A stretch of 64,000 nt of DNA from Ruminococcus sp. Lineage in GTDB: Bacteria > Bacillota > Clostridia > Oscillospirales > Acutalibacteraceae. Every line of letters begins with the position of its first letter. Position 1 is the stretch's first letter. The notes beneath the pieces were generated by a model. That model saw only the letters and a program-made list of their open reading frames with translations. It was not told the origin of the DNA and searched no databases. The stretch is taken from positions 52,774-116,773 of the forward strand of contig JAFQPG010000005.1 in assembly GCA_017411835.1 (NCBI GenBank), given 5' to 3'. The position numbers and the translations under genes are program-made. Below, piece after piece: positions 19,942 to 51,642 of this stretch.

Positions 19942-20850
19942 ATGAAGCATTTGTTTATTCTCAACGCTTATGCGGGTAAAAAAAGCCGAGTGGAAGAGCT
20001 TAAGGAAAAGATTAAAAGTCTTAATCTTGACTGTATTATTGAGGAAACAAAATCTCATGGTGATGCAAAAAGAATTGCTAATGAATATGTAAGCAAAAGC
20101 GACGATTTTGTAAGGGTTTACGCTTGTGGCGGCGACGGCACAGCAAACGAAGCGATGAGTGGTATGGTCGGATATGATAACTGTGCGCTTGGTGTAGTTC
20201 CTGTCGGTACAGGAAATGACTTTGTAAAAAGCTTTGATTTTGCTACTGATGATTTTCGCGATTTAGAGAAGATGGTAAGCGGCGATACCGTTACTATTGA
20301 TTTACTTGAGTGTAGCGGGCATTACGCGTTAAATACCATTTCGGTCGGATATGATTGTGCAGTTGCGAAGCTCGCACAAAAAATAAAAAGATTTCCGCTT
20401 ATGACAGGTCCGACTGCCTATAAGGCGGCACTTGTGTACTGTCTTTTTTCAAAGAGAAAGCATAGCCTTGTACCTTTTGCAGATGATGAAAAGGTAGAAA
20501 TACCACAAGGGTATAAAACACAGATGATGTGCGTTGCGGGAAATGGCAAGTACTACGGCGGTGGCTTTAAGGCAACCCCGTATGCTCAGTTTAACGACGG
20601 CAATATAGACTTTTTGTCGGTGCCTACAATCTCGCTTATAAAATTTGCTCAGCTTGTCGGAATTTTTGTTAAGGGCGAGCATATCGGTCACAAAAAAGCA
20701 CCGTTTATTGTACATAAAAAATGTAAAAAGCTTCAGTTTAAAGACGACAAAAGCATTGACATCGGTCTTGATGGCGAGATATTTAATATCAAAGACCCTG
20801 TTGTTACGGTAAAGCCGTCTTGCTTTAAAATAATTGTGCCTAAAATCTGA
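19942..20850 (+). CDS. Diacylglycerol kinase family lipid kinase (YegS/BmrU-like)
   Basis: NAYAG, ACGGDGTANE, PVGTGNDF, GNGKYYGGG and DGE motifs. Confidence 0.92.
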   Translation: MKHLFILNAYAGKKSRVEELKEKIKSLNLDCIIEETKSHGDAKRIANEYVSKSDDFVRVYACGGDGTANEAMSGMVGYDNCALGVVPVGTGNDFVKSFDFATDDFRDLEKMVSGDTVTIDLLECSGHYALNTISVGYDCAVAKLAQKIKRFPLMTGPTAYKAALVYCLFSKRKHSLVPFADDEKVEIPQGYKTQMMCVAGNGKYYGGGFKATPYAQFNDGNIDFLSVPTISLIKFAQLVGIFVKGEHIGHKKAPFIVHKKCKKLQFKDDKSIDIGLDGEIFNIKDPVVTVKPSCFKIIVPKI

Positions 20851-20897
20851 TAAATTTAAAGATTTCAAATTAGGTCTGGGATAGAAAAGGAAAAGGT

Positions 20898-22232
20898 ATG
20901 TCATTCAAAAGACTTTTAAATATTCTTTTGATATTGTTGCTGACAGTAGGGGTAGTATGCTCCTGCTGTTCTTGTGCTGTCAGCAATAGCGATAATACCG
21001 AAAATATAAATGATGAATACAGCATAGTAAGAGATATAAGCTTTTCAAAAGAAAAAACCTCGAAGGTTTTGCAAATTGCTTTTGAAAATACGGCTTTGTC
21101 AGAGCATACATATTCAGTTTGTAAAGCGTACTCGAGCTTTCTTGATGAAGCTTTTTCAAAAACGGTTATCACACGACTTGAATGGCTTAAGCTTTTGCTT
21201 GAAAAACTTGGCTGTGAGCTCGTTACTGATTTAGACGGGTATGACCACATAAAAGACCTTAACTACTTTGAGGGTAGTGAGTACTACATTACTGCGATTG
21301 AAAACGCGGTTGTTTATCGTGGTGGTAATGAATTCGGGCTTAATAGTCCGGCTAGCAGACAGTTTGTTGCGACCTCGCTTGTAAAGGGCGTAGGATATGA
21401 TATTGACTACAAGCTTGAATGTGCAGACTACGATGATATCGACGAGAAAATAGAAGCATCAACCACAGTATATTTAAGATATCTTGTGCTTGATGACGAA
21501 AACTGCTTTAACGGTGAAACTGCAATTACACAGACGGAAGTTGATTTTCTACTTAATGAGCTAGATTTGATGAATATGTTGCAGGGAAAAAAAGTAATGT
21601 CATTTGGTGACAGTATTATGCATGGTACGGGCAATGATGATATCGGTATTGCGACTCTAATAGCACAGCGATATAAAATGCAAGTAGTCGATTATTCAAA
21701 GGCGGGTGCGACCTTTGGCGATGCGCCTGACCGTGAGCAGATATCAGACCAAATAGAAAGAGCAGTTGAAAAAGGCGAAGATGCCGATTTCATTCTTTTA
21801 AACGGCGGCACTAATGATATGCGCAACCTGCCTCTTGGACAGATATCAGACGACTTTAATTACATAGAAAACGGGAGAGAGTTTTTCTCGCAGGGTATGG
21901 AATATGCGCTTGGACTTTTGCGCGACAATTATCCTGAATCAAAGATGTTGTATATAAGGGCACACGATATGGAATTTTCGCTTGAGCGAAATGAATTGCA
22001 CTTTGGTAAAACAGCACTTGATATCTGCAAAAAATGGAATGTTGATGTTGCAGACGTCTTTAACGATACAGGCTTTGATGCTCATAATGCAGAGATAAAA
22101 AAGAAGTACACAAAAATTTCAAAAAATTGCGAAAAGGGTGACTCGGTCCACCCGAATAGACTGGGATATTACGAATATTATATTCCGCTGACAGTGGAAA
22201 AAATGATAAAAAATATTAATGTAACGGAGTGA
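20898..22232 (+). CDS. Secreted/lipoprotein SGNH-GDSL hydrolase with degenerate SLH-like N-terminal repeats
   Basis: Cys-rich signal end VVCSCCSC; ITRLEW, ASRQFV and ITQTEV SLH-like motifs; FGDSI, GATF, NGGTND and DSVHPN catalytic blocks. Confidence 0.85.
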   Translation: MSFKRLLNILLILLLTVGVVCSCCSCAVSNSDNTENINDEYSIVRDISFSKEKTSKVLQIAFENTALSEHTYSVCKAYSSFLDEAFSKTVITRLEWLKLLLEKLGCELVTDLDGYDHIKDLNYFEGSEYYITAIENAVVYRGGNEFGLNSPASRQFVATSLVKGVGYDIDYKLECADYDDIDEKIEASTTVYLRYLVLDDENCFNGETAITQTEVDFLLNELDLMNMLQGKKVMSFGDSIMHGTGNDDIGIATLIAQRYKMQVVDYSKAGATFGDAPDREQISDQIERAVEKGEDADFILLNGGTNDMRNLPLGQISDDFNYIENGREFFSQGMEYALGLLRDNYPESKMLYIRAHDMEFSLERNELHFGKTALDICKKWNVDVADVFNDTGFDAHNAEIKKKYTKISKNCEKGDSVHPNRLGYYEYYIPLTVEKMIKNINVTE

Positions 22233-22237
22233 TTGAT

Positions 22238-23188
22238 ATGACAAAATTATACATTGCGGTTCCTTGCTACAACGAACAAGAGGTGCTACCTGATTCATCG
22301 CAGAAGCTGCTTGATAAAATGATGCTGATGATTGCACAGGGAAAAATCACAAGTGACAGCCGTATTGTTTTTATTGACGACGGCTCAAAAGACAAAACCT
22401 GGAGTATTATCAAAGCATTGCACGAGCAAAACGAGATGTTTCAGGGCATCAAATTAAGTCGTAATCGCGGACATCAGAATGCACTTTTGTGCGGACTTAT
22501 GACTTTAAGGGATAAGTGTGACGCGATTATCTCGATTGATGCTGATTTGCAGGATGACATAAATGTGTTTGATGAGATGGTAGAGAAGTATGAAAGTGGA
22601 TGTGACGTTGTTTATGGCGTAAGGTCAAAGCGTGAAACAGACACCTTCTTCAAGCGCTTTACTGCAGAGGCTTACTACAAAATTTTGGACAAGCTCGGCG
22701 CAAAAATTATTTTCAATCACGCTGATTTCAGACTTATGAGTGCACGTGCACTTGAGGCATTCTCGCAATTTAAAGAGGTTAACCTTTTCTTGCGCGGTAT
22801 TGTGCCGATGATTGGCTATAAGTCAGACATCGTAACCTACGAGCGTAGTGAGCGACTTTTAGGCGAGAGTAAATATCCGCTTAAAAAGATGCTTGCGCTT
22901 GCATTTGAGGGCATTACATCACTGTCTACAAAGCCGATTAAGCTTATTTCAAGAACAGGTATCATCATCTTCCTGATTTCGATTGTTATGCTTGTTTACT
23001 TTTTAATCAGATACTTTATCGGTGCTACCGAGGTGGGTTGGGCATCGCTTGCTGTGTCTATCTGGGCTATAGGCGGACTACAGCTTTTAGCTATCGGAGT
23101 TGTCGGCGAATATATCGGCAAGATTTATTTAGAAACAAAAGAGCGTCCACGCTACATTGTTGAAGAGTATCTTGATGACAATAAATAA
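22238..23188 (+). CDS. GT2 polyprenyl-phosphate glycosyltransferase (GtrB-like)
   Basis: VPCYNEQE, DDGSKD, RNRGHQNAL, IDADLQDD, DFRLMS motifs; 2 C-terminal TM helices; RBS GGAGTG. Confidence 0.93.
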   Translation: MTKLYIAVPCYNEQEVLPDSSQKLLDKMMLMIAQGKITSDSRIVFIDDGSKDKTWSIIKALHEQNEMFQGIKLSRNRGHQNALLCGLMTLRDKCDAIISIDADLQDDINVFDEMVEKYESGCDVVYGVRSKRETDTFFKRFTAEAYYKILDKLGAKIIFNHADFRLMSARALEAFSQFKEVNLFLRGIVPMIGYKSDIVTYERSERLLGESKYPLKKMLALAFEGITSLSTKPIKLISRTGIIIFLISIVMLVYFLIRYFIGATEVGWASLAVSIWAIGGLQLLAIGVVGEYIGKIYLETKERPRYIVEEYLDDNK

Positions 23189-23200: not shown

Positions 23201-23231
23201 AAAGCACTTTGGAAATTCCAAAGTGCTTTTT
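23201..23231. terminator. Bidirectional terminator
   Basis: AAAGCACTTTGGA-aat-TCCAAAGTGCTTT. Confidence 0.88.
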
Positions 23232-23233: not shown

Positions 23234-23692
23234 TTATACCGAGAAAGCTTTTTTAAGAAAAGCTCTGCCGTAGTTTGTCATAAATTTAGAGTTTGATTCT
23301 TTAATTATCGTTTGTCTGTCGACACCCTTTTCTTTAAAGTCCACTATCATATGTGCTTCCAAAAGAATCTGGTGGTCAAGACCGGTGATGTGGTCGAAGT
23401 TATCAAAATTTTCAACTATGTAGCAAACGCGGTCTATAATGTCAAATTCAAGCTCTTGCTTTTGAAGCATATCTTTAACGAGCTCGTGTTTTTTAAAGTC
23501 GCTGTCTGAGTCATCGATATCGCACACAAGTGCTGAAATTTCGAGATATTCCTGTGTTTGTTCAGGAAGTTTTTCTAATTCTCCGATAGTTTTTGCAAGC
23601 GTGTAAACGCTGACAAAGTGACGAATTTTTGCTTCGTTATTACCGCATAGCTCTTTCATCGCTTTAGCGATTTGATTTACGTTTTTTGTCAT
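23234..23692 (-). CDS. HD-domain-like protein, degenerate (HD replaced by CD)
   Basis: RHFVSVYTLAKTIG...LEISALVCDI...QILLEAHMIV follows the short clostridial HD phosphohydrolase pattern. Confidence 0.7.
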   Translation of the reverse strand: MTKNVNQIAKAMKELCGNNEAKIRHFVSVYTLAKTIGELEKLPEQTQEYLEISALVCDIDDSDSDFKKHELVKDMLQKQELEFDIIDRVCYIVENFDNFDHITGLDHQILLEAHMIVDFKEKGVDRQTIIKESNSKFMTNYGRAFLKKAFSV

Positions 23693-24233
23693 TTCTAAAT
23701 TCCTTCATTAATTTTCTGATATGAGCAAAGGTTTTTTCTTCGCCTTGCTCTTTTAGCATAAAAAGCAATTCTTCTAAAATGTCAGATGTCTTTTGATGTA
23801 TCATATCAACACGACGGTGCTTAGCCGCCATAAAGTAGTTGTAGGCGCTTTCATCGGTATAGTTTTCGCCCTGATAGATTTTGCTCGCTGCAATTCGGTC
23901 GCAAAACATCTCAACTACATAGTTAAACGGCATTTCTACAGGAGTCATAAAGCCTTTCTTTAAAGGAGAGTAATCACGCCAATATTCAAAATGGTGGCGG
24001 TTTCTGCCCATGTGGTGCATCCATGCTGACGAATAGCCGAGCTCTTCACGTGCTTTGTCGTTAGGCGAGCGATCACCCTGAAAATACTTTGCACTTGGAA
24101 TAAATTCCGTAGGCGAGTATTTAGACAAATCGTGAAAAAGTCCCTGCCATAATATGCCTGCTTTTTTGCAGTTTCTGATAACCTCGTGGCGGTGACGGGT
24201 TATGGTTATAAAATGTTTTAGTGCTTTGCTCAT
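23664..24233 (-). CDS. DUF5662-like HD-superfamily protein
   Basis: HFITITRHRHEV, HDLSKYSPTEF, AWMHHMGRNRHHFEYW, EMFCDRIAASKIY. Confidence 0.85.
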   Translation of the reverse strand: MSKALKHFITITRHRHEVIRNCKKAGILWQGLFHDLSKYSPTEFIPSAKYFQGDRSPNDKAREELGYSSAWMHHMGRNRHHFEYWRDYSPLKKGFMTPVEMPFNYVVEMFCDRIAASKIYQGENYTDESAYNYFMAAKHRRVDMIHQKTSDILEELLFMLKEQGEEKTFAHIRKLMKEFRNDKKRKSNR

Positions 24234-24251: not shown

Positions 24252-24767
24252 TTATACGATATAATTTTTATTATCTCTTGTTATGATATGCACAATACCA
24301 TCTTTGATTTGTTGTAGATTATCTTTAATAAAACTCGGATAAACTGTGTAGTCCTCCAGTTTATCAAGCGGTAAAAAACACATTTCTTCTTTTGCACCAA
24401 AGCTGTTGTAGCTGTTAGAATTCAACTTTTTCGTACCGCGACTTTTCATTAAGTAGTACAGCGAGATTTCGTGACAGGTAAGCCCTTTGAGCGAACTGCT
24501 GTTTTGTGAGAAAAAGTTTTCGTGTATGACTGCGAGATGATCTATTTCGTATTTTACGCCTGTTTCCTCATATACTTCGCGTACTATCGCGTCTTGCGCT
24601 TCTTCATTCATATGAACACCGCCACCGACAGAATAGTAATAATCGTCGATGTTGTTTTTGACAAACAGTACGCAGTCGTCCTCTATAATGATAGCGCCGA
24701 CACGGTAGCGAAACCAGTTGTTATCATGTGTAAAACAGCAATCGTAGCTCATTTTATTCTCCTGCAT
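24252..24767 (-). CDS. NUDIX hydrolase
   Basis: FRYRVGAII; GGGVHMNEEAQDAIVREVYEETG Nudix box. Confidence 0.9.
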   Translation of the reverse strand: MQENKMSYDCCFTHDNNWFRYRVGAIIIEDDCVLFVKNNIDDYYYSVGGGVHMNEEAQDAIVREVYEETGVKYEIDHLAVIHENFFSQNSSSLKGLTCHEISLYYLMKSRGTKKLNSNSYNSFGAKEEMCFLPLDKLEDYTVYPSFIKDNLQQIKDGIVHIITRDNKNYIV

Positions 24768-24785: not shown

Positions 24786-26651
24786 TTATCGTGTCAAACG
24801 GGTGATGTAGTCAACATCGTAGTAATGACTAGGCACGAAATACGCACCGTTTTTGATGCTTTCTATTACGGTTTGTGTCATAGTGCAGGCACTGCAGTAG
24901 TAGTGAACACCGTACTCCTTACACAATTTGTCAAACTCTTTTGTATATTCCTTATGGTTCATATACAGGTATTTGATGCTTTGCTCTTTGCAATATTTAA
25001 GTGCATTTTCCAAAGTAGAAAGTGTTTCTTCCTTTGAAATATGGTTGTCTACAGTATGGTAGATAATATTAAACTTAGGATAGTTTGCTTTTACGTATTC
25101 GATATCTTGCTTAGACTCAAGTCGCAGATAAATGTTTTTTGTGCTGACAAGGTTTCTTTTTAAAGCGTAGGTGATTTTAGACATAAGCTTTTCAAAAACC
25201 TTTTTAGACGGACGACCAAACGACAGCACAAGCTTGATTTTGTTAAAATTAAGGCTGTTTCGTGCAAGCTTTAAAAGTGTATCAAAGGTCATTGTGTCAA
25301 AGCGGTTGTAGTATTTGCAGTTTTCAAATTCACTAAGCTTAATTGAAGTTACCTTTTCGCTGTTTGCCATCGGGTGATTTAAGAGCTTGAAGGTGTCTTT
25401 GTGCCAGCGATTTACACATACTGCAACATTATCGCTTGTGAGTCTGATATCCGCCTGGAAATTTTTATATCCGTATTTTAGCGAATATTTAAACGCCTGC
25501 GGGGAGTTAGTATTTTTATACCTTGTGTCGATACCGCCCAAGGCAGGGGCAAGCATAGTCTTAGAAAAACTAAGGTTTTCACGCTCTTTTTCTCTGATGA
25601 AGCAGAAGTTATCTGCAAAATCCTTGAGCGCATCATATACTCCGTTTTTACATTCAGGCTTTAGAGTACAGCCCTTTTCTACAGCGTCTTCCCACGCGGA
25701 AATAACATTTTGCACGCTGATGTTTTCGCACTCAATAAAGCGTTCTTCATAACCGATTTTTTTGCCCCAGAACCTAAGCTTTTGGTTCCATATAAAGCCG
25801 ACACTTGGAATATTAAGTGCATAGGAGATTATATTTGAATGCATTCTTACGGCGATAACGCTTGAAAATTCAGAGATGTTCCTAACGAGGGCTACACCGG
25901 ACAAAGGAGCATCAAGCTTTTTATACTCGCCGACATACTCTAAAACTTCTTTTGCAAAAATCTCGTCGTTAGGGTCGCCATTTGTAAAGACCTTCCATTC
26001 GATTTTGCGACGATTTAGTTCATCAATAATACCTTTGAACAAATCAAGCTGGAACTGTCTGTCGATCTGCTTATTGCCGTAGTCAGCAAAAAGCCTTTCT
26101 CGAGCAATACCAATGCCGACAAGCTCTTTTTTGTTTTTACTGATTTTAAGCTCTTTTTTATATGTATCCTTACACCATACCGCAGGGTCGTAGACGCAGT
26201 AGGTGCGAGTTTGAGTGTTTTCTAAATAATCGCGTTTTAAAGTGTCTATATCGTCACGCACGCTGATGCCCTTTACGCAAGGCAGATTAAGCGCTTGCTT
26301 TAAAGCAACGCTTCCCTCGTTATCTTCATAAAATTTTTCTACGCCGATAGCACTTAAGAAAACAGGAATATTAAGGCGGTTTGCCTCGTTGATAATTTCA
26401 GGAATATATATGTGGAATTTCTCGTTAGTACATTTTAAGATACCACCCGCAAAAACAACCGCATCTACATACTTAAGCTGGCCTACATCACGACTTGAAA
26501 TGCTGTATCTTAAAATATCGCATTTTTTCGGATGTAAAGCCTTTTTAAGCAGATAGTAATCGTTGTCCGCAAGTATAGTGTCGCCTAGATTCATATTTGA
26601 TGTTTGCACCATCAAAATTTTCAGAATGTCAGACATAAATGTACTCCTCAA
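24786..26651 (-). CDS. Polysaccharide pyruvyl transferase fused to a GDPD-like domain
   Basis: N-terminal NLGD, AGG, SVRD, DPA and RMHS motifs; C-terminal TIM-barrel pattern LAPALGG...NS..AF..S...GY..FQADIRLTSD. Confidence 0.8.
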   Translation of the reverse strand: MRSTFMSDILKILMVQTSNMNLGDTILADNDYYLLKKALHPKKCDILRYSISSRDVGQLKYVDAVVFAGGILKCTNEKFHIYIPEIINEANRLNIPVFLSAIGVEKFYEDNEGSVALKQALNLPCVKGISVRDDIDTLKRDYLENTQTRTYCVYDPAVWCKDTYKKELKISKNKKELVGIGIARERLFADYGNKQIDRQFQLDLFKGIIDELNRRKIEWKVFTNGDPNDEIFAKEVLEYVGEYKKLDAPLSGVALVRNISEFSSVIAVRMHSNIISYALNIPSVGFIWNQKLRFWGKKIGYEERFIECENISVQNVISAWEDAVEKGCTLKPECKNGVYDALKDFADNFCFIREKERENLSFSKTMLAPALGGIDTRYKNTNSPQAFKYSLKYGYKNFQADIRLTSDNVAVCVNRWHKDTFKLLNHPMANSEKVTSIKLSEFENCKYYNRFDTMTFDTLLKLARNSLNFNKIKLVLSFGRPSKKVFEKLMSKITYALKRNLVSTKNIYLRLESKQDIEYVKANYPKFNIIYHTVDNHISKEETLSTLENALKYCKEQSIKYLYMNHKEYTKEFDKLCKEYGVHYYCSACTMTQTVIESIKNGAYFVPSHYYDVDYITRLTR

Positions 26652-26666: not shown

Positions 26667-27482
26667 TCAACCCTTAGTATAACGCTTTTTAAGCCATTTG
26701 GCTACACCATTTTTGATATTTGAGTCAATTATTTTTGTCGCTTTTTGTTTTAGCGAGTCCACCGCATTTTCAACAGCGTATGCTTCGTCTGCGATTAAGA
26801 ACATTTCAAGGTCGTTTATACCGTCACCAAACGCAACAATATAGTCACATTCCAAAAGCGTTGCAAGCTGTTTGACAGCGTTTGCTTTGGTAGCATTTTT
26901 AGGGGTTATTTCAAGCCAGTATTCATTTGAATACATATCACGCTGAAAATAGCATTTATACCTATCTTTGTACTTTTCGTACAACTTTTTGGTTTTATCT
27001 TCATCGCCGATAAGTGTAAAATAATAAATCTCGCCTGAATATAGCTCGTCGTTTGTTTTTACGGGGTGATTTCGTTTGTCAGTCTGGCGCTCATTTATAA
27101 AGTCTTTTGTCGGCTTGTTTATCTCGTCTTTTACATAAGAAAACTTTTGCTCACCGTCTATTAAAGAAAATACAACAGGGCTCAAGTCGTTTTGCAAAAT
27201 TTCTGATAAAAGCTCTTGCGCATCTGACTTTTCAAAAATGTTTTTTACTAAAATCTCACCATTTTTATCAACGATAAAGGTGCCGTTGTGGACGACCAAA
27301 GGATGAAAAAACTCCAAGCCGTTTGTGACCTTTTTTGTTGTGACAAAGGAGCGAGCCGTCGCAAAGGTGATGGTCATACCCGCTTTGTTCAGAGCATTTA
27401 TGATAGCGTTTGTATATTCACTTGTTTTTGGTGTTTTGTCAAGCAAGGTGCCGTCGAGGTCCGACACAAAAAGTGTTTTCAT
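26667..27482 (-). CDS. Cof-type HAD hydrolase
   Basis: FVSDLDGTLL, TFATARS, ATKANA and AFGDGINDLEMF motifs. Confidence 0.93.
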   Translation of the reverse strand: MKTLFVSDLDGTLLDKTPKTSEYTNAIINALNKAGMTITFATARSFVTTKKVTNGLEFFHPLVVHNGTFIVDKNGEILVKNIFEKSDAQELLSEILQNDLSPVVFSLIDGEQKFSYVKDEINKPTKDFINERQTDKRNHPVKTNDELYSGEIYYFTLIGDEDKTKKLYEKYKDRYKCYFQRDMYSNEYWLEITPKNATKANAVKQLATLLECDYIVAFGDGINDLEMFLIADEAYAVENAVDSLKQKATKIIDSNIKNGVAKWLKKRYTKG

Positions 27483-27506: not shown

Positions 27507-29159
27507 TCAAAGTTTTTTCATATATATGTGACGCTTAAGTCCGCCGTACTTTTCTTTTGTTAAAACCTTTTTGTAGCCACAGCCTTCAAAAGTTTTGCAG
27601 CTAGGTATGTTTTTAGGCGAAACTGTCGCGAGCAAAATGTTGTATTTGTCGGTGTTTATGAGCTTTTCTGCGTAGTTTAGCATTTGTTTTTGCAAAGCTT
27701 TTCCCCTGTAGCGTGGATGCACAACAGCAGTTTCCATATGCGCAACACGTAAAAGCTCGCTTTTTTCTAAATTTATATCTCTGCCTAAGTTGTCATCTGA
27801 GTGGTGCGGGAATCTTAGTATAAGGTTTGCGATGATTTCGCTTTCTTTGTTGCAAGCGACAACACCGAGCCCGTTTTCTTCTATATGACTTTTTATAAAC
27901 TGCAAATCGTCGCAGACATAAATCGACTTATCTTCAAGGTTATCATAAACATAACGCATCAAATTAGCGATTTTTTCTGCATCAGTTTTTTTGGCAATTC
28001 TAAGCATTGTATCAGCTTTAGTAAGCAAAGCGATACTTTCGACGTGGTTTGTGTGTGGGAACATATCGACAGGCTGAATGTGCAAAACCTTGTAGCCGTT
28101 TGCTTTTAAAAATCTTATATCTCGGCTTTGGGTTTCAACATTGCAGGAAATATATACGACCTTTTGTATATCCATATCAATAACTGATTGCAGAAATTCT
28201 TTGCTGCAACCGCTTCTCGGCGGGTCAACAAAGGCGACATCGATTTTTATGTTTTCATTTTTCAGCGACTGTATATAGTCTTTTGCATCAGCACAAACAA
28301 ATTCAATGTTTTTAACTAAATTGAGTTTTGCATTTTTCTTAGCATCTTTGATTGCATCTTCGTTTGATTCAACCGCTAAAACAGTTTTTGCTTTATCAGA
28401 CAAGCAGATGCCGATTGTACCAACACCGCAGTAGCTGTCGAGTACCGTTTGTGTACCGTCTAAGTCTGCAAGCTCGATTGCTTTATTATAAAGCTTTTGA
28501 GTTTGCACAGGGTTAATCTGGTAAAAAGACTGCGGTGAAATTATAAAGGTTTTGCCACACAGCACGTCTGTGATATAGCCCTCACCGTATAAAACATCCT
28601 GTGTCTTGCCAACAAAGAGCTTTTTGCGGTCTTTGTTTACGGTCGTGACGATAGTCGTGATGTATGGATGGTTTTTTAAAAGTGCGGAAACAAAGGTCTT
28701 TTTAGCAGGGAAAATAGCGTCAGCACCATTTATGATGACCATACATTCTTTGCTGGAAAATCCCTCGCGCACGACAACGCTTTTTAAAAAGCCTGTACCC
28801 TTATACGGGTCATAGATAGAAATTTTAAAGCTTTTAAAAAGCTTGCACAAGGTATTAAAAATCTCATTTGAGTGCTGAGTATGGAGTCTGCAATTTGTTG
28901 TAACGACTACGGAATTGGTAGTAGATTTATAAAGTCCCCATACTATACTTTTATCACGCTGTACTTTAAAAACAGCTTGCGCTTTATTTCGGTAGGAAAA
29001 AGGAGTTTTCATACCGATGATTGGCTCGACTTTAGCAAAAGAGCCTAAAAATTTTCTACACTTTGACTGTTTGAATTTTAACTGCTCTGAATACGAGAGA
29101 TTATTAAGTTGGCAGGAATTGCATTTTTTTGCAATATTACAGTTTAATTTGACGTCCAT
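27507..29159 (-). CDS. rlmD: 23S rRNA m5U methyltransferase (RlmD/RlmC family, no TRAM domain) fused to a C-terminal GNAT domain
   Basis: CxxxxxCxxC Fe-S motif, YRNKAQ, SFYQIN, DSYCGVGTI, VDPPRSG, YISCN, DMFPHTNHVE; then AVVHPRYRGKAL...ATVSPKNIPS GNAT motifs. Confidence 0.88.
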   Translation of the reverse strand: MDVKLNCNIAKKCNSCQLNNLSYSEQLKFKQSKCRKFLGSFAKVEPIIGMKTPFSYRNKAQAVFKVQRDKSIVWGLYKSTTNSVVVTTNCRLHTQHSNEIFNTLCKLFKSFKISIYDPYKGTGFLKSVVVREGFSSKECMVIINGADAIFPAKKTFVSALLKNHPYITTIVTTVNKDRKKLFVGKTQDVLYGEGYITDVLCGKTFIISPQSFYQINPVQTQKLYNKAIELADLDGTQTVLDSYCGVGTIGICLSDKAKTVLAVESNEDAIKDAKKNAKLNLVKNIEFVCADAKDYIQSLKNENIKIDVAFVDPPRSGCSKEFLQSVIDMDIQKVVYISCNVETQSRDIRFLKANGYKVLHIQPVDMFPHTNHVESIALLTKADTMLRIAKKTDAEKIANLMRYVYDNLEDKSIYVCDDLQFIKSHIEENGLGVVACNKESEIIANLILRFPHHSDDNLGRDINLEKSELLRVAHMETAVVHPRYRGKALQKQMLNYAEKLINTDKYNILLATVSPKNIPSCKTFEGCGYKKVLTKEKYGGLKRHIYMKKL

Positions 29160-37919: not shown

Positions 37920-38441
37920 ATGTTTTATTATATATATCTAAGGCCTTTATGGATAATTTGCTTATGTATGTTTGTAGTGGTTTTAGTATATAGTGCTTTG
38001 GGTTGTTTTTTCTTAAGAGCTTCTAAAGCATGGAGAATTATTAATTTGTGTTTTTCTGTTATTTCAGTATTAGCTATACTCTATGTAACGATTTTAAACA
38101 GAGAAAGCGGTGAATCTGAGATTATATTTATCCCATTATGTTCTCTGTTTGATAAGAGTGTTGATGTGGAAAAATACCGTGTCACGCTAATGAATATTTT
38201 TCTTTTTTTCCCACTGGGATTATCTATGACATTTGCATTACCAAATAGGTGCAAACATCCGATATTTTTGGTGATGACATTCAGTTTTTTACTATCTTTG
38301 GTTATTGAAATATCACAATATATTTTTAGACTGGGCAGATGTGAAGTTGATGATATTATAATGAATACAATTGGAGCTTTTATAGGCGCTATTGCTTTTA
38401 TGTTGAGTAGTATTATAGTGAAAAATAAAGAGAGAAAGTGA
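37920..38441 (+). CDS. VanZ-family membrane protein
   Basis: MNIFLFFPLG, SLVIEISQY, GRCEVDDIIMNTIGAFIG. Confidence 0.9.
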   Translation: MFYYIYLRPLWIICLCMFVVVLVYSALGCFFLRASKAWRIINLCFSVISVLAILYVTILNRESGESEIIFIPLCSLFDKSVDVEKYRVTLMNIFLFFPLGLSMTFALPNRCKHPIFLVMTFSFLLSLVIEISQYIFRLGRCEVDDIIMNTIGAFIGAIAFMLSSIIVKNKERK

Positions 38442-38445
38442 CTAA

Positions 38446-39690
38446 ATGAAAAAGTTAAGATTAAGTTCTATTGATGAAACATTATTAGAAATTTTAGCAT
38501 ATGCATTGTTTGGAAATCAAAAGCCACTAATATATTTGGAACAGATAGAGCCGCTTCTTAGAGAAGCACGATTGCAATCTGTATATCCTTTAGTATATTC
38601 TAGTATGGAGAAAGATATAAAGGAAAAACTGGATTCTAGTGAATATGCTAAGTACGATAAATTATATTTGAAATACATTATGAGTTGTGCACAGAACTTT
38701 GAAGAACATAATGAATTAGATGGGGTTTTACAAGAGGCTCAAATACCTTATTGTGTAATTAAGGGCGTTGCATCTGCAGCATATTATACTCAACCATTTT
38801 TACGTAGTGTCGGTGATGTAGATTTTCTTATAAAGCACGTTCACAAAGAAGATGTATCAGCTTTAATAAAAAAAATAGGATTTGAAGCTAAAAAAACTGA
38901 TAATGATGAGGTGCATGTAGCTTTTAGTCGTGGTGATTATAGTATTTGGGAAATGCATTATTCCATCAACGGTATCCCAGAGAATGATGTGGGAGAATTA
39001 ATTCGAGAAGATTTAGAAAATATTATTTACACATCAAATGAATTTAAATCGGTGGATGTAAAATGTTCTGTTCCAAATAAATACTATCATGGATTAATTT
39101 TGCTTTTGCATACGGCTTCTCATTTGACACATGAAGGCATTGGATTGAGACATTTGTGTGATTGGGCAGTATACGTTAACAGCTTTGAAGATAATGAATT
39201 TGAGTCAATGTTTAAAGAAAAGCTGACTTCTTATGGTTTGTGGACATTTGCACAAATATTAACAGAGTTGTGTGTGAGGTATTTGGGAGTGAAACCAAAA
39301 TGTTGGTCAAGTGAAATTATTAAACACGGTGATTTTAGTTGCGAGGTTTTTCTTTCTCTAATATTAGATGTCCTAAGTGCAGGTAACTTCGGTAAAAAAG
39401 ATGTTAATCGTTACAGAGAAATTAAGTATATTCATAATAGTGCAGGAACTGTTGACAAAAAAGGTATATTTTTACAGGCATATAGAAACCTGAACAGAAA
39501 AGTGTTTGATAATCATAAGATTATAAATAGGGTTAAGATTTTATTGCCGATTGGTTGGATGATTGAGGGTATAAAATATATAAATCTTCTATTGAAAAAT
39601 GATAGAAAAAATATAAGAACAATTAGTATGATATCACAAGCTTCAAAGAGAAAAAGAATATATAGTAAAATGAATTTGTTTCAAAACTAA
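38446..39690 (+). CDS. Uncharacterised nucleotidyltransferase (NTP_transf_5-like)
   Basis: IKGVA, RSVGDVDFLI, EMH, LLLHTASH and GIGLRHLCDW motifs. Confidence 0.85.
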   Translation: MKKLRLSSIDETLLEILAYALFGNQKPLIYLEQIEPLLREARLQSVYPLVYSSMEKDIKEKLDSSEYAKYDKLYLKYIMSCAQNFEEHNELDGVLQEAQIPYCVIKGVASAAYYTQPFLRSVGDVDFLIKHVHKEDVSALIKKIGFEAKKTDNDEVHVAFSRGDYSIWEMHYSINGIPENDVGELIREDLENIIYTSNEFKSVDVKCSVPNKYYHGLILLLHTASHLTHEGIGLRHLCDWAVYVNSFEDNEFESMFKEKLTSYGLWTFAQILTELCVRYLGVKPKCWSSEIIKHGDFSCEVFLSLILDVLSAGNFGKKDVNRYREIKYIHNSAGTVDKKGIFLQAYRNLNRKVFDNHKIINRVKILLPIGWMIEGIKYINLLLKNDRKNIRTISMISQASKRKRIYSKMNLFQN

Positions 39691-39698
39691 AAGTTATA

Positions 39699-39740
39699 AA
39701 AACAACGAGGATAACAATTTATGGTTATCCTCGTTGTTTT
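39699..39740 (+). terminator. Strong terminator
   Basis: Perfect 17-bp inverted repeat AAAACAACGAGGATAAC/GTTATCCTCGTTGTTTT. Confidence 0.9.
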
Positions 39741-39756
39741 GTGCATAAGGTTTTTA

Positions 39757-39785
39757 TTGACATAATGTGTGTGCTGTAGTAGAAT
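39757..39785 (+). promoter_or_regulatory. Sigma-A promoter of the main polysaccharide operon
   Basis: TTGACA-N17-TAGAAT. Confidence 0.82.
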
Positions 39786-39823
39786 ATTTAATGGTGTATT
39801 ATGGAATTGTGGGGTAGTATGCC

Positions 39824-40360
39824 TTGCTGAAAATCAAGGCTAAATTTTTTATGAAAAAGTTACTTATTATAGGAGCGGGTGCCCATAGTGAAGTGGTCTG
39901 TGAAGTGGCTAGGAGTTGTGGGTATTCAGAGTTCATTTTTGTGGATGATTCTAAAGAATTGCTGAGTATTGGTAGAGCCCAATACGATACAACGGCATTA
40001 AGCTGGTTAATAAAAGAATATGAAGATGCTTTTATATCGGTGGGTAATAATCAAATGCGAAAGAGTATGTATGATCAATTAATTGAAAATGGGTATAACA
40101 TACCTTCGCTAATACATCCAACTGCATATATCAGCTCATCAGCTACTATAGGAGACGGATCATTGATAGGACCAATGTCGATTGTGAATTCAAACGCATT
40201 AATTGGCAAAGGATGTATTTTATCGTGTGCAGCTGTTGTTGATCATAATGTCGTGGTATCAGATTTTGCACATATAGATGCTGGTGCAGTATGCGAATCT
40301 TATAGTAAGGTAGATATGTATGGTAAGATTTTAGCAGGAACTGTTAATAAAAACCAATGA
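39824..40360 (+). CDS. PglD/NeuD-like sugar N-acetyltransferase (short copy)
   Basis: IIGAGAHSEVV, ISVGNNQMR, IHPTAYIS, hexapeptide repeats, VDHN; alternative ATG at 39851. Confidence 0.85.
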   Translation: MLKIKAKFFMKKLLIIGAGAHSEVVCEVARSCGYSEFIFVDDSKELLSIGRAQYDTTALSWLIKEYEDAFISVGNNQMRKSMYDQLIENGYNIPSLIHPTAYISSSATIGDGSLIGPMSIVNSNALIGKGCILSCAAVVDHNVVVSDFAHIDAGAVCESYSKVDMYGKILAGTVNKNQ

Positions 40361-40387
40361 AATTGTAATCTTTGGGAGAGGGTAAAG

Positions 40388-41581
40388 ATGGGATATACAC
40401 CGTTTGAAAATAAGGTGTGGCTTGCAACACCGACTATGCATGGTGAGGAGCTTGAATACATTACACAAGCGTATGAGTCTAACTGGATGTCTACAGCCGG
40501 TGCAAATATTGAAGAAGTTGAACGAATTATATCTGAAAAGCTAGGCTGCAAGTATGCGGTAGCTTTATCTGCAGGTACAGCTGCCTTGCATATGGCAGTA
40601 AAACTTGCCGGAGTAAAACGAGGAGATAAGGTTTTTTGCTCTGATATGACTTTTGACGCAACTGTTAATCCTGTCGTGTATGAAGGCGGTGTACCGATAT
40701 TTATTGATACCGAGTACGATACTTGGAATATGGACCCAAAAGCACTAGAGAGAGCATTTGAACTTTATCCTGATGTTAAGGTTGTTGTGCTTGTTCATTT
40801 ATACGGTGTTCCGGGTAAAATTGATGAGATCAGAGAAATTTGTGACAGACATGGTGCCATAATTATCGAAGATGCAGCGGAATCTCTTGGTGCTACATAT
40901 AAGGGAGTACAGACAGGAACCTTTGGAGAATTCAACTGTATTTCTTTTAATGGCAATAAGATTATTACCGGTTCTTCAGGTGGTATGATGCTGACAGACA
41001 GCGAAGAAGCAGCTCAAAAAGCAAGAAAATGGTCTACACAATCTCGTGAGCCGGCACCATGGTACCAGCATGAAGAGTTGGGATACAACTACAGGATGAG
41101 CAATGTGATTGCAGGTGTTGTTCGAGGACAAATACCACATCTTGAAGACCATATTGCAAGAAAAAAAGCCATATACGAAAAATATAAAAAGGGATTTGAG
41201 GGCTTGCCTGTTATTATGAATCCTTATGACGAGAAAAACAGTGAGCCTAATTTTTGGCTGAGCTGTATGATAATTGACAAAGAGGCAATGTGTCGTCAGA
41301 CAAGAGGTCCTCTTGCGGCGCAGTTCTTTAAAGAGCCTGGCAGATCATGTCCTACAGAAATTTTGGAAACACTTGAAAAATACAATGTAGAGGGTAGACC
41401 GGTCTGGAAGCCAATGCATATGCAGCCTATCTATGCAAACAATGCTTTTGTTTGTGCTGCTGATAGTGTTGATGTAGGAGCAGATATATTTGAGCGAGGA
41501 CTATGCTTGCCATCAGATATAAAAATGACTGATGATGAGCAGGAAATAATCATCGACATTATTAAGAGTTGTTTTGACTAA
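40388..41581 (+). CDS. PglE/EpsN-like DegT-family aminotransferase
   Basis: SAGTAALHMA, IEDAAESLGA, SFNGNKIITGSSGG, GYNYRMSN, RPVWKPMH, GLCLPS. Confidence 0.93.
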   Translation: MGYTPFENKVWLATPTMHGEELEYITQAYESNWMSTAGANIEEVERIISEKLGCKYAVALSAGTAALHMAVKLAGVKRGDKVFCSDMTFDATVNPVVYEGGVPIFIDTEYDTWNMDPKALERAFELYPDVKVVVLVHLYGVPGKIDEIREICDRHGAIIIEDAAESLGATYKGVQTGTFGEFNCISFNGNKIITGSSGGMMLTDSEEAAQKARKWSTQSREPAPWYQHEELGYNYRMSNVIAGVVRGQIPHLEDHIARKKAIYEKYKKGFEGLPVIMNPYDEKNSEPNFWLSCMIIDKEAMCRQTRGPLAAQFFKEPGRSCPTEILETLEKYNVEGRPVWKPMHMQPIYANNAFVCAADSVDVGADIFERGLCLPSDIKMTDDEQEIIIDIIKSCFD

Positions 41582-41595
41582 ACTCGGAGGAAAAA

Positions 41596-42258
41596 ATGAA
41601 GGGTAACCACAAACCTTATGGCGCGTATGAGCGTTTTTTCAAACGACCAATAGATATAATATGTGCACTGTTAGCACTTGTTGTTTTTTGTTGGCTATAC
41701 ATAATCGTTGCAATTTTAGTCAGAGTCAAATTAGGTAGTCCTGTTATCTTTAAGCAGGCAAGGCCGGGAAAGGATGAAAAGATTTTTTATCTTTACAAAT
41801 TCCGCACTATGACAGATGAGCGCGACAAAAATGGAGAGTTAATGCCTGATGAGGTAAGACTGACAAAGTTTGGAAGATTTCTTAGGAAAACATCGCTTGA
41901 TGAGTTGCCAGAGGCAATTAATATCTTAAAGGGAGATATGAGTGTTGTGGGACCAAGACCCTTGCTTGTAGAGTATCTTGATAGATACTCTGACGAGCAA
42001 CATCGTCGTCACGAGGTCAGACCGGGACTTTCGGGCTATGCTCAGGTTCATGGTAGAAATACAGTCACTTGGGAAGAAAAATTTAAAATGGATGTTTATT
42101 ATGTTGATAACATCACGTTTTTGGGCGATATCAAAATAGTATTTGATACTGTATTTAAAGCCTTCTTTAAACGAGAGGGAATCAACTCTCAGACAAGTGC
42201 AACTATGGAAGTATTTATGGGTACACAGGATACAGAAAAAGAAACGGTTGAAGTATGA
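41596..42258 (+). CDS. PglC/EpsL-like priming phosphoglycosyltransferase
   Basis: KRPIDI, YKFRTM, RKTSLDELPE, GDMSVVGPRP, RPGLSGYAQVHGRN. Confidence 0.94.
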   Translation: MKGNHKPYGAYERFFKRPIDIICALLALVVFCWLYIIVAILVRVKLGSPVIFKQARPGKDEKIFYLYKFRTMTDERDKNGELMPDEVRLTKFGRFLRKTSLDELPEAINILKGDMSVVGPRPLLVEYLDRYSDEQHRRHEVRPGLSGYAQVHGRNTVTWEEKFKMDVYYVDNITFLGDIKIVFDTVFKAFFKREGINSQTSATMEVFMGTQDTEKETVEV

Positions 42259-42866
42259 AAAAACTGGTTATTATTGGAGCGAGCGGACACGGAAAAGTTG
42301 TGGCTGATATAGCTCGTCTTAGTGGATACAAAAAAATAGTTTTTCTCGATGACAACAAGAATGTTACAAAGTGTGGTAGATACGAGGTTGTGGGAACGAG
42401 TGAAAATATCGGTGCCTACAACTGTGACTTCTTTGTTGCAATCGGTAATCCCATTGTCCGCGAAAAGGTTACTAAAGCACTTGATAAAGCAGGTAAAAAG
42501 GTCGTAACACTTATACACCCTAATGCGACTATCGGTGATGATGTCAGCATAGGTGATGGCAGTGTTGTTATGGCAGGTGCAGTTATCAATCCTTGTACAA
42601 CTATTGGTAAAGGTTGCATCATCAATACTTGTTCATCAGTAGACCATGATAGTGTAATATCTGATTATGCACACATAGCTGTCGGAGCGCATCTTGCCGG
42701 TACGGTTGAGATTGGCGAAAAAACTTGGCTTGGATCTGGTGCTGTAGTTTCAAATAATATTACGATATCTTCTAATTGCATCATTGGTGCAGGTGCAGTT
42801 GTTATCGATAACTTGTTAACAGAAGGTACATATGTTGGAGTTCCCGCGAGGTGGTTGCATAAATGA
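42255..42866 (+). CDS. PglD/EpsM-like acetyltransferase
   Basis: IIGASGHGKVV, AIGNP, IHPNA, VDHD, hexapeptide repeats, GVPAR. Confidence 0.93.
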   Translation: MKKLVIIGASGHGKVVADIARLSGYKKIVFLDDNKNVTKCGRYEVVGTSENIGAYNCDFFVAIGNPIVREKVTKALDKAGKKVVTLIHPNATIGDDVSIGDGSVVMAGAVINPCTTIGKGCIINTCSSVDHDSVISDYAHIAVGAHLAGTVEIGEKTWLGSGAVVSNNITISSNCIIGAGAVVIDNLLTEGTYVGVPARWLHK

Positions 42867-44011
42867 AAAAAATATGTTTTGTAACAACAATCTATCTTAC
42901 ATATAAAAGTTTTCTTAAAGAGTTTTCAAAATATTTGCACGAAACAGGTGAGTATGAGATTTCTCTTATCTGCAATGATGAGGAAAGTATTAGGGAAGAT
43001 TTGCCTAATTATGTGCATTATTATCCTGTTAATATGAAGCGCGGGGTAAGTTTGTCTGCTTTTAGTGCCATACAAAGTATTACTAGAATACTCAAGGAAA
43101 AAGAGTTTGATATAGTTCAGTATTCAACACCAAATGCTGCTTTCTATACATCAATAGCCTCAAAAAAAGCAAAAGTACCTGTACGGTTGTATTGTCAGTG
43201 GGGAATTAGATATATGGGGTTTGAAGGTGCTAAACGTAAAATATTTAAATTTCTAGAAAAAATCACTTGTAAGAATTCAACTTATATTGAAGCCGAAAGC
43301 CATAACATTAGAGAGTTTTCCTTAAAAGAAGAGTTGTACAATGAAGGAAATAGCTGTGTTATTTGGAATGGTAGTGCAAGCGGTGTTAATCTTAAAAAGT
43401 TTGATTTCTCGAAAAGGGAAGTTTGGCGTAAAGAAATTCGCGAGAAGTATAATATAAAAGATGATGAAATAGTTTTTTCTTTTGCAGCAAGATTAACACG
43501 TGACAAAGGTATTAATGAACTTTTAGATGCTTTTTTACAACTGGAATGTAAATACAGTAATGTAAAGCTGTTAGTTAGCGGTGGGATGGATGACGAAGGA
43601 TCACTTGATTCACAACTATATGCAAAAGCCAATGAATCTGATAGTGTTATTTTTACAGGAAGCGTTAGCAATATAGAGAAGTATTATGCGGCGGCTGATG
43701 TTTTTATTTCACCTAGCTATAGAGAGGGATTTGGACTAGTAGTTGTAGAAGCCGAATCTATGGGTTTGCCATCTATTGTAACTGACGTTCCTGGTCAGAT
43801 TGATGCTATTCTGCCAAATGAAACTGGATTGACATGCAAAGCGAAAGATGCTGAATCATTGAAGAACGCTATGATAACACTTATAGAGAATAGTGATTAT
43901 AGGGAGAAATTATCAAATGCAGCGGTTAGTTTTGTTGTAGATAATTTTGACGACAAAGAATTGTTTAAGTATTTGAAGAATAATAGGGATAAATTGATCT
44001 TTGGGAGATGA
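42863..44011 (+). CDS. GT4 glycosyltransferase (PglA/CapM-like)
   Basis: TPNAA, SASGVNL, ARLTRDKGINEL, PSYREGFGLVVVEA. Confidence 0.92.
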   Translation: MKKICFVTTIYLTYKSFLKEFSKYLHETGEYEISLICNDEESIREDLPNYVHYYPVNMKRGVSLSAFSAIQSITRILKEKEFDIVQYSTPNAAFYTSIASKKAKVPVRLYCQWGIRYMGFEGAKRKIFKFLEKITCKNSTYIEAESHNIREFSLKEELYNEGNSCVIWNGSASGVNLKKFDFSKREVWRKEIREKYNIKDDEIVFSFAARLTRDKGINELLDAFLQLECKYSNVKLLVSGGMDDEGSLDSQLYAKANESDSVIFTGSVSNIEKYYAAADVFISPSYREGFGLVVVEAESMGLPSIVTDVPGQIDAILPNETGLTCKAKDAESLKNAMITLIENSDYREKLSNAAVSFVVDNFDDKELFKYLKNNRDKLIFGR

Positions 44012-44018
44012 GTAAGTA

Positions 44019-44804
44019 ATGCCTAAAGTTAGTGTTTTGATGGGTGTTTATAATTGCGCTGATACAGTACATCAAAGCATAAACTCAATTAAAGAGCAGA
44101 CATTTACAGACTGGGAATTCATTATATGTGATGATGGTTCAATTGATAATACTGCCGCTATAGTTGAAGAATATGCAAAAAATGATTTTAGGATTAAGTT
44201 TATTAAAAATGATAAAAACCGTGGTTTATCTTACACACTTAATCATTGTTTGAAATATGCAACAGGTGAGTATTGTGCACGTATGGATGGCGATGATATC
44301 TGCAGTAAGGATAGATTTCAGATTCAGGTGGATTTTCTAGATAGTCATCCTGAGTACGGCTTTGTCAGTTCGCTTATGACCAGACACGACGAGAATGGCA
44401 TATATCAGAAGCCTGAGCAAAAAGAATCTTATGCCCCGACAAAAAAGGATTTCGTAAAAGGTTCGCCGTATTGCCATGCACCGGTTATGATGAGAAAAAG
44501 CTCTTACGATGCGGTAAACGGTTACAGAGATATTGATAAAACCCTTGGAGTAGAAGACTATGACATGTGGTTTCGCCTGTATGAAAAGGGAATATATGGA
44601 TATGTGTTACATCAACCACTTTATAGTATGTTTGATGGTCGTGCAGCTGCAAGTAGAAGAACTTTAAATAGGAGACTAAATGAAGCTTGGGTAAGAAAGG
44701 AAGGATATAAGATGATAGGGATTCCTTTTTTGTATCGAATTTATATCCTTAAGCCGATTATTCTTGCTTTTATACCACAGTGGTTATATAAAATAATCAG
44801 ATAA
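44019..44804 (+). CDS. GT2 glycosyltransferase
   Basis: VLMGVYN, DDGSID, ARMDGDD, HAPVM and EDYDMW motifs. Confidence 0.92.
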   Translation: MPKVSVLMGVYNCADTVHQSINSIKEQTFTDWEFIICDDGSIDNTAAIVEEYAKNDFRIKFIKNDKNRGLSYTLNHCLKYATGEYCARMDGDDICSKDRFQIQVDFLDSHPEYGFVSSLMTRHDENGIYQKPEQKESYAPTKKDFVKGSPYCHAPVMMRKSSYDAVNGYRDIDKTLGVEDYDMWFRLYEKGIYGYVLHQPLYSMFDGRAAASRRTLNRRLNEAWVRKEGYKMIGIPFLYRIYILKPIILAFIPQWLYKIIR

Positions 44805-44825
44805 GTCACAGGAGAGTTTTATAAA

Positions 44826-48150: not shown

Positions 48151-48153
48151 CAA

Positions 48154-49218: not shown

Positions 49219-49228
49219 GGGGTTTTAT

Positions 49229-50026
49229 ATGAGCGAATACAAAGTTGGACAATATGATGTAACTGAGATTCAGGAAAAAATATTTGAAATATTTCTTGAG
49301 TTTGATCGCATTTGTAAAAAGCATAATATTAGATACACCCTTGAGGGCGGAACATTGTTAGGCGCTGTTCTTCATAAAGGATTTATACCGTGGGATGATG
49401 ATATGGATATTATTATGCTTAGAAGTGAGTATGATAAGTTTTGTAGGGTTGTTGACGAGGATATAAGGGAACCTTTTGTTTTTTATAGTATGGAAAAATC
49501 AGAGCAATACCCTTTTTTATTTGGTAAAATTTTCAATAAAAACACTATTTACAAGTCACCCAACACAGCTCATCTGGATATTCCTCAGGGAGTATTTTTA
49601 GATATATTTATTGAAGATAATATAAAATTAAGAACTAAAAAATTACATAGTCGTATAGTCAGTGCTATAGGTACTGTTAGGTATATAAAACTAGGCGTGG
49701 TAGGATTTAGCATAAAACACATATTCTATGCACCATTGTTCTTATTTTCTATAACAAAGTTAAATGTGTTAGCTGATAAGGCGATGAGAAAGTATAACGA
49801 AGTTGATACAGGATATGTGTATCCTCTGTGCCAGTCAATAAGTTCTAAACCGCCGCTACCTAAGCGGATGTTTACAGATTTTGAAAAAGGTATTTTCAAT
49901 AACTTTGAGGTAGATATACCCACTTGTCATATGTGGTATCTTCATAAACACTATGAAACTCCAATGGAATTACCACCAGAGTCGAGTAGGCACCCAACAC
50001 ATGGAGTTGTAGAGATTAAACTTTAA
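49229..50026 (+). CDS. LicD-family phosphotransferase
   Basis: GGTLLGAVLHKGFIPWDDDMDI; FLDIF. Confidence 0.9.
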   Translation: MSEYKVGQYDVTEIQEKIFEIFLEFDRICKKHNIRYTLEGGTLLGAVLHKGFIPWDDDMDIIMLRSEYDKFCRVVDEDIREPFVFYSMEKSEQYPFLFGKIFNKNTIYKSPNTAHLDIPQGVFLDIFIEDNIKLRTKKLHSRIVSAIGTVRYIKLGVVGFSIKHIFYAPLFLFSITKLNVLADKAMRKYNEVDTGYVYPLCQSISSKPPLPKRMFTDFEKGIFNNFEVDIPTCHMWYLHKHYETPMELPPESSRHPTHGVVEIKL

Positions 50027-50046
50027 AGAATTGAGATGAAATTAAT

Positions 50047-51609: not shown

Positions 51610-51642
51610 TTTGGAAATTATGAATTTTTGAGGTGATATCTT

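Follow-up and report, generated by a model that had tools for sequence, protein, structure and literature searches.

A conserved fusion of a putative pyruvyltransferase with a degenerate GDPD-fold barrel in Ruminococcus sp. and its possible link to teichoic-acid-type polymers

A 64,000-nucleotide stretch of a Ruminococcus sp. contig (JAFQPG010000005.1, positions 52,774 to 116,773; hereafter the window) contains on its minus strand, at positions 24786-26651, a single unbroken open reading frame (ORF) that encodes a pyruvyltransferase-like domain followed by a domain resembling glycerophosphoryl diester phosphodiesterases (GDPD). The gene is part of a tightly packed minus-strand string made up of an m5U-methyltransferase/GNAT gene, a HAD phosphatase gene, the fusion, a NUDIX gene, a DUF5662 gene, and an unannotated ORF of 152 amino acids (aa). 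The listed ORF starts with a TTG codon at 26651, and an alternative ATG codon is found at 26636, behind a GAGGAG sequence. Because the GAGGAG site is 7 nt upstream of the ATG, and because the resulting product of 616 aa has the length of most close homologues, the ATG is more likely to be the true start as judged from the sequence, and the TTG is an unlikely one. The gene product is best explained as a soluble cytoplasmic two-domain enzyme. Features of the locus are collected in Table 1; residues are numbered according to the listed ORF throughout.

Table 1. Features of the pyruvyltransferase/pseudo-GDPD locus in the window.
Feature	Position	Strand	Basis or remark
Pyruvyltransferase/pseudo-GDPD fusion gene, 616 aa	24786..26636	-	ORF reading, ribosome-binding site, homologue length
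Probable ribosome-binding site GAGGAG, 7 nt upstream of ATG 26636	26644..26649	-	
PS_pyruv_trans domain, N-terminal, GT-B-like fold, residues ~6-351 (ORF numbering)	25599..26636	-	Pfam, structural alignment
R269-M270-H271, invariant in the family	25839..25847	-	104 sequences; Pvg1p R337-L338-H339 by motif
GDPD-fold TIM barrel without catalytic residues, C-terminal, residues 360-621	24789..25574	-	VIA-align, Foldseek
A-P-A-L-G-G after beta-1, first catalytic His lost	25533..25550	-	versus A-H-A-L-G-G (nearest His-bearing relatives) and H-R-G (canonical GDPD)
FQADIRLTSD, degenerate E-x-D-x-R-x-T-x-D block; Q399 at metal Glu; D401, R403, D407 kept	25431..25460	-	
VCVNRW after beta-3; N414 at second catalytic His (H-D/G-W in relatives)	25404..25421	-	
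S-F-G-R-P, end of beta-4, at the E-x-K block (E-T-K-R-P in phage K gp155); S477 at third metal ligand, G479 at Lys	25209..25223	-	alignment to 9f49, column counts
m5U RNA methyltransferase fused to GNAT domain, first gene of the string	27507-29159	-	
Cof-type HAD phosphatase, upstream; 15 bp from the listed ORF, ~30 bp from ATG 26636	26667..27482	-	
NUDIX hydrolase, downstream, 18 bp gap	24252..24767	-	
DUF5662 gene, same operon	23664..24233	-	syntenic in L002, L004-L006
Bidirectional terminator-like hairpin, 13 pairs; ends the minus-strand operon and the convergent DAGK-SGNH-GT2 operon	23201..23229	.	

A search of 5.8 billion proteins returned more than 120 clusters of 600-660 aa with 98-100% query coverage and 34-99% identity. 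Many of these clusters have precomputed matches to both PF04230 and PF03009, and one JGI record is annotated as pyruvyl transferase and glycerophosphoryl diester phosphodiesterase. A genome scan revealed 79 loci with the fusion, in Lachnospiraceae, 'Ruminococcus', Acutalibacteraceae, Oscillospiraceae, Eubacterium plexicaudatum ASF492, and one Gastranaerophilales metagenome-assembled genome. The unbroken frame and the recurrence in more than 100 full-length clusters and 79 loci rule out an assembly artefact or a pseudogene. We conclude that the fusion, initially predicted from the window sequence alone, is genuine and conserved. Within the same taxonomic family it was found in one of 120 sampled genomes, and it was absent from the congeneric genome in the sample; such patchy spread is typical of an accessory surface-decoration gene. 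No description of a pyruvyltransferase-GDPD fusion was found in the papers searched.

The N-terminal half matched the Pfam PS_pyruv_trans profile (PF04230) over residues 21-288 with an E-value of 2e-16, covering profile positions 1-278 out of 280, and the score of 61.2 bits was above the curated cutoff of 25.3. An AlphaFold 2 (AF2) model of the protein, built from 104 homologues (pLDDT 95.4, pTM 0.92), was compared with solved structures using VIA-align. Residues 8-327 aligned with the S. pombe pyruvyltransferase Pvg1p (5ax7_A) with a Z score of 18.8 and a root-mean-square deviation (rmsd) of 3.5 Å over 259 residues. UDP-GlcNAc 2-epimerases aligned to the domain equally well, and the GT-B-like fold alone is therefore unspecific. 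Residues R132, D133, D155, and R269-M270-H271 are invariant among the 104 family sequences. The modelled contacts of Pvg1p with phosphoenolpyruvate (PEP) are R217, D240, and R337-L338-H339 (PMC6801904), and the offsets of R132, D155, and R269-M270-H271 are compatible with these contacts, as judged by motif and aligned ranges rather than by residue-level alignment. We infer that R269-M270-H271 corresponds to the PEP-contacting R337-L338-H339 of Pvg1p. With its PEP-binding motifs apparently intact, the N-terminal domain looks like a competent PEP-dependent ketal-pyruvyltransferase. Sequence searches against the PDB reached neither Pvg1p nor CsaB, even at an E-value of 10. The window protein, like the characterised PS_pyruv_trans enzymes (Pvg1p, PDB 5ax7; CsaB of Paenibacillus alvei and B. 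anthracis; WcaK; EpsO), matches the Pfam profile over its full length; it has the GT-B-like fold in common with Pvg1p, its invariant R-x-H and R-D motifs are compatible with the PEP contacts of that enzyme, and PEP is the expected donor. It differs from all of the characterised enzymes by an additional C-terminal domain of ~260 aa. In its own genome, the window gene is the sole PS_pyruv_trans and the sole GDPD-like sequence.

The Pfam GDPD profile (PF03009) matched this additional domain over residues 381-560 below threshold (18.4 bits versus 23.6), while many homologues have a precomputed PF03009 match above the gathering score. A phmmer search of the PDB with the single protein gave no match; a search with the family profile reached solved GDPDs at an E-value of 5e-4. 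In the AF2 model, pLDDT was above 90 throughout the barrel, and residues 360-621 aligned with more than 25 solved GDPD barrels, including 2pz0, 3ch0, B. subtilis GlpQ (5t9c), and phage K gp155 (9f5m), with Z scores of 20-25 and rmsd of 2.4-3.0 Å over ~230 residues. Foldseek produced a GDPD match with an E-value of 1e-10, and GDPD clusters were found in the ESM Atlas as well. The C-terminal domain, as modelled, is a GDPD-fold TIM barrel.

The residues required for GDPD catalysis are almost completely missing from this barrel. The first catalytic His should be located at P369, according to the nearest relatives, or at L371, according to a hidden Markov model alignment to 1o1z; none of the residues 368-371 is a His. 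The Arg of the H-R-G motif is missing in either alignment, the sequence at 369-372 being P-A-L-G. At other sites, Q399 occupies the position of the metal-binding Glu, N414 that of the second His, S477 that of the third metal ligand, and G479 that of the Lys, while D401 is kept. Thus, out of the canonical set of two His, Arg, Lys, and three metal ligands, one Asp alone remains. The original prediction had described an intact pyruvyltransferase domain joined to a GDPD-like domain without both catalytic His and the metal-binding Glu, and had quoted MLAPALGG (25533-25556), FQADIRLTSD, and VCVNRW as the relevant motifs. The motifs are present where claimed, and the near-complete profile match, the predicted structure, and the residues at the catalytic sites bear out each of these points; beyond them, the protein has lost the Lys and another metal ligand.

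The loss extends to the whole family. No His is present at 368-371 in 95 out of 104 sequences. Position 414 is occupied by N in 71 sequences, S in 10, D in 8, K in 5, and H in 3; position 399 by E in 45, Q in 27, and H in 24; and position 477 by D in 40 and S in 38. G479, which replaces the Lys of E-x-K, is invariant. Two groups can be distinguished. One has E399/D477/Q512. In the other, which is more degenerate and includes the window protein, position 399 is Q or H, position 477 is S, G or A, and position 512 is E. The co-variation at 399, 477, and 512 looks like a trace of a remodelled former metal site. H417, which HMMER paired with the 9f49 His by bridging a gap, was considered as a displaced catalytic His and rejected, this position being His in 47 of the 104 sequences and the nearest relatives placing the His at 414. 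Compared with GDPDs such as 2pz0 of T. tengcongensis, GlpQ (5t9c), and gp155 (9f5m), the window barrel has the same TIM-barrel fold and still contains the x-D-x-R-x-T-x-D core block as well as the Cys preceding the His site, but lacks both catalytic His, the Arg, the Lys, and two of three metal ligands; it is also predicted to be cytoplasmic and is joined to a transferase.

The origin of the barrel was followed in an exhaustive HMMER search of 1.84 billion representatives with the C-terminal domain alone (P0122) as a query, which gave 254 matches at an E-value of 1e-3 or below. The nearest non-fused relatives form a GDPD subfamily of Firmicutes with the signature (I/V)-A-H-A-L-G-G ... E-x-D ... 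T-x-D ... H-(D/G)-W. Its members pass the Pfam GDPD threshold and match the query with E-values of 1e-13 to 1e-5; no prior description of the subfamily was found. In some members the barrel is joined to TagF-like enzymes, GT8, SGNH, Acyl_transf_3, CWB2, Cu_amine_oxidN1 or Ig domains; other members carry signal or lipoprotein leaders and would be secreted proteins, lipoproteins or membrane-anchored proteins (examples of the subfamily are P0165, P0187, P0190, P0195, P0185, P0207, P0210, P0222, P0215, and P0179). Since H-A-L-G-G barrels are fused to wall-polymer enzymes, the whole subfamily is tied to such enzymes. The window barrel has the A-L-G-G and W416 signatures and the wall-polymer enzyme association in common with these relatives. 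They differ in that the relatives retain both His and E-x-D and appear active, whereas the pyruvyltransferase-fused clade has lost both His.

The loss correlates with the fusion. Both His are kept in 62 representatives without a pyruvyltransferase domain. In the fused representatives both are gone together, with T, P, A or V at 369 and N (41 representatives) or D (6 representatives) at 414. Among the best 150 representatives, no pyruvyltransferase joined to a two-His GDPD was found; P0149 keeps H369 only, and P0127 keeps H414 only. In a FastTree phylogeny of the barrels the His-less forms fell in one clade of 53, with a modest node support of 0.58, which agrees with the histidines having been lost once in the fused clade. 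The best explanation of these sequence data is that the barrel is a pseudo-enzyme derived from the His-bearing H-A-L-G-G/H-D-W subfamily. A search for shorter forms found no stand-alone dead barrel. Short N-G-W matches were rejected as split forms; they begin inside the barrel or the pyruvyltransferase domain, and look like truncated gene calls.

Mean pairwise identity is 32% for the C-terminal domain versus 50% for the N-terminal domain. R403, G479, and P481 of the barrel are nonetheless invariant, D407, C412, and W416 are present in at least 95% of sequences, and R510, Y531, and Y611 in 84-87%. This pattern indicates that the barrel remains under constraint. The same residues could be read as the signature of a new activity, either phosphotransfer or metal-only hydrolysis through E399/D401/D477 in the larger sub-group, in which case the protein would be bifunctional. 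An E399-D401-D477 triad, which could potentially hold a metal, is indeed present in about half of the family. We nevertheless consider a new activity improbable: the acid/base histidines and the lysine are gone across the family, the window sub-clade is also without two of three metal ligands (Q399, S477), and the invariant residues belong to the ancestral core, with none being new.

The surroundings of the fusion gene in relatives were analysed by clustering ORFs of the 79 loci, 8 kb on either side, and annotating recurrent neighbours. A gene for a TagF-like protein (Glyphos_transf), a TarI-like cytidylyltransferase or a TarJ-like dehydrogenase was found on the same strand within 8 kb in 37 loci, and in many of these a TagF-like gene of ~380 aa is located 10-160 bp downstream of the fusion. 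Characterised PS_pyruv_trans enzymes, in contrast, are encoded in sugar-polymer clusters. In a clade of ~24 'Eubacterium' loci, which includes E. plexicaudatum ASF492, the gene order is TagF, TarI, epimerase, a second, stand-alone pyruvyltransferase (402 aa), a metallophosphoesterase/5'-nucleotidase (1230 aa), the fusion, TagF (~380 aa), TarI, TarJ, and TagF (for example, L038:2942-9884; L042, L044, L047-L052, and others, ~23 in total, are similar). The 1230-aa protein contains Big_6 repeats. No glycosyltransferase gene was found within 8 kb on either side of these operons. At least eight further arrangements were observed (L009, L014, L021, L026, L032, L036, L055/L060, L065/L068). In L055 (738-6335) and L060 the pair formed by the fusion and the TagF-like gene is tandemly duplicated, which suggests that the two proteins may work as a pair.

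Two loci with such neighbours, L026 and L009, belong to the sub-group of the window protein (47-49% identity). In L026, a gene set for ABC, LicD, TagF, GatZ-like, TarI, TarJ, and Acyl_transf_3 proteins lies immediately upstream of the fusion. In L009, a split SHMT gene lies between the fusion and an upstream set of GatZ-like, TarJ, TarI, TagF, and Acyl_transf_3 genes.

The genome from which the window originates (1.72 Mb, 99.2% complete) contains polyol-phosphate genes on other contigs: Acyl_transf_3 and a 918-aa TagF-like protein on C10, LicD-TarI-TarJ on C11, and LicD-TarI-GatZ-like-alcohol dehydrogenase (ADH) on C1. Three LCP ligases are encoded as well. The combination of LicD or TagF with TarI-like, GatZ/KbaZ-like, and zinc alcohol dehydrogenase genes occurs at C1:65481-70290 (L089:5482-10291), L026:3785-6928, and L009:117-3539. 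The GatZ-like/TarI/ADH set looks like a route to CDP-hexitol rather than CDP-ribitol, and it possibly serves a hexitol-phosphate polymer.

Two readings of the surface chemistry were assessed against the gene content of this genome. The original prediction had connected the fusion to CsaB, the best-studied bacterial wall pyruvyltransferase (PMC6030368), which would make a pyruvylated ManNAc epitope for SLH-domain proteins, and had described the protein encoded at 20898-22232 as an SLH-like SGNH protein. The window protein does show a weak similarity to the CsaB model TIGR03609 (E-value of 2e-6), but the score of 27.3 bits is far below the equivalog cutoff of 213.1. A GDSL/SGNH domain is present in the 20898-22232 protein, while no SLH match was found in it, and no match to PF00395 (SLH) was found in the genome. 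The CsaB/SLH reading is therefore refuted for this genome unless SLH-like proteins escape Pfam, and we assign it a very low likelihood overall. The polyol-phosphate and pyruvyl chemistry could also decorate flagellin glycans instead of a wall polymer, a reading to which the lack of export and priming genes within 8 kb of the 'Eubacterium' operons lends some support. Since the genome is without a flagellin gene, this is excluded for the organism studied here; no flagellin gene was found in the L026 and L009 genomes either, and the E. plexicaudatum operon is more than 580 kb from the nearest flagellin gene. It is the least credible of the alternatives considered.

Based on the dead barrel and the neighbourhood of its relatives, we tentatively propose that the protein is a pyruvyltransferase that modifies a teichoic-acid-type polymer or a precursor of it, with the pseudo-GDPD barrel serving to bind polyol-phosphate units. 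The proposal, our leading one, is held at somewhat less than even confidence because the link to such polymers rests on gene neighbourhood in relatives. According to it, the barrel would still be able to bind, as its ancestors did, a diester of a polyol phosphate (glycerol, ribitol or hexitol phosphate), but would leave it uncut. Binding would tether the pyruvyltransferase domain to a teichoic-acid-type polymer, a lipid-linked precursor or a CDP-polyol, and a pyruvate ketal would then be placed on the polyol or on an adjacent sugar. In a more specific and more doubtful version, the barrel would act as a 'reader' of polyol-phosphate repeats that positions the 'writer' to place the ketal on the polyol itself (ribitol or hexitol) of the polymer or of CDP-polyol, and the TagF-like partner would handle the modified unit. 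Products of this kind have been known for years. Pyruvylated teichoic acids include a 1,5-poly(ribitol phosphate) of Nocardiopsis metallicus in which every ribitol carries a 2,4-pyruvate ketal, a glycerol type with pyruvylated N-acetylgalactosamine, and a poly(mannitol phosphate) of Brevibacterium iodinum with 4,5-pyruvate (PMC6801904). No enzyme for teichoic-acid pyruvylation is named in that review, and none came up in the searches made; in Tetragenococcus halophilus, a putative pyruvyltransferase is encoded behind tarIJL (PMC9045211). The proposed logic is the same as that of the glycosyltransferases TarS, TarM, and TagE, wall-teichoic-acid tailoring enzymes whose genes adjoin tarIJL: a cytoplasmic decorator encoded, in relatives, beside TarI/TarJ/TagF-like genes. 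The differences are that a pyruvate ketal from PEP would be added instead of a sugar, that the fold family is another one, that the activity is putative, and that the window gene itself lies away from tar genes.

Several observations weigh against the proposal. The window gene and its six closest relatives (L001-L006, 59-63% identity) have no tag/tar neighbours and are found in the HAD/NUDIX/DUF5662 operon instead; the HAD phosphatase neighbour recurs in four of these six loci, and four share the HAD/DUF5662 context of the window. The single 'Eubacterium' clade supplies ~24 of the loci with adjacent teichoic-acid genes, and these are not independent. With one carrier among the 120 genomes of the taxonomic family, a co-occurrence test has no power. 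Finally, the kept D401, R403, D407, and C412 are also part of the structural core of ordinary GDPDs, and their conservation is no proof of ligand binding. The predicted targeting of phosphodiester-linked wall polymers by the dead barrel is indirectly supported by the 37 loci with teichoic-acid-type genes and is not supported by the window locus, which is outside any wall-polymer cluster.

An alternative is an ordinary saccharide pyruvyltransferase, which would act on a lipid-linked repeat of a capsule, exopolysaccharide or secondary wall polysaccharide; the barrel would then be a scaffold or oligomerisation domain, or a binder of the undecaprenyl-pyrophosphate head group, and tag/tar genes would be nearby in relatives only because envelope genes generally cluster. 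Every characterised PS_pyruv_trans enzyme acts on sugars (PMC6801904), and the absence of tag/tar genes from the window locus and the faster divergence of the C-terminal domain fit such a role. It accounts less well for the fact that the fusion directly adjoins same-strand TagF-like genes in many arrangements and is co-duplicated with them, for the 'Eubacterium' operons that combine two pyruvyltransferases with no nearby glycosyltransferase, and for the sister barrels that are fused to TagF itself. We consider a saccharide-specific enzyme rather unlikely, though the most serious of the competing explanations.

The charge and decoration of surface polymers affect phage receptors, host recognition, and anchoring of cell-wall proteins in gut bacteria. 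The family described here is common among Clostridia of the gut and rumen, is frequently encoded in TarI/TarJ/TagF operons, and is a concrete candidate for teichoic-acid pyruvylation. If the barrel does read polyol-phosphate repeats for the pyruvyltransferase domain, that modification would have its first assigned enzyme family. A phosphodiesterase would also have been turned into a domain for substrate targeting, which may be a general route in envelope biosynthesis.

On the other side of the terminator-like hairpin, the plus-strand genes at 19942-23188 for a DAGK/YegS-like lipid kinase, the SGNH protein, and GT2 form one unit that converges on it. In the 444-aa SGNH protein, the SGNH domain is C-terminal and the N-terminal ~230 aa are unannotated; its gene is overlapped by the GT2 gene by 4 bp. 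Further along the window, the segment at 38000-58000 has a low G+C content (0.28-0.36) and a strong positive GC skew.

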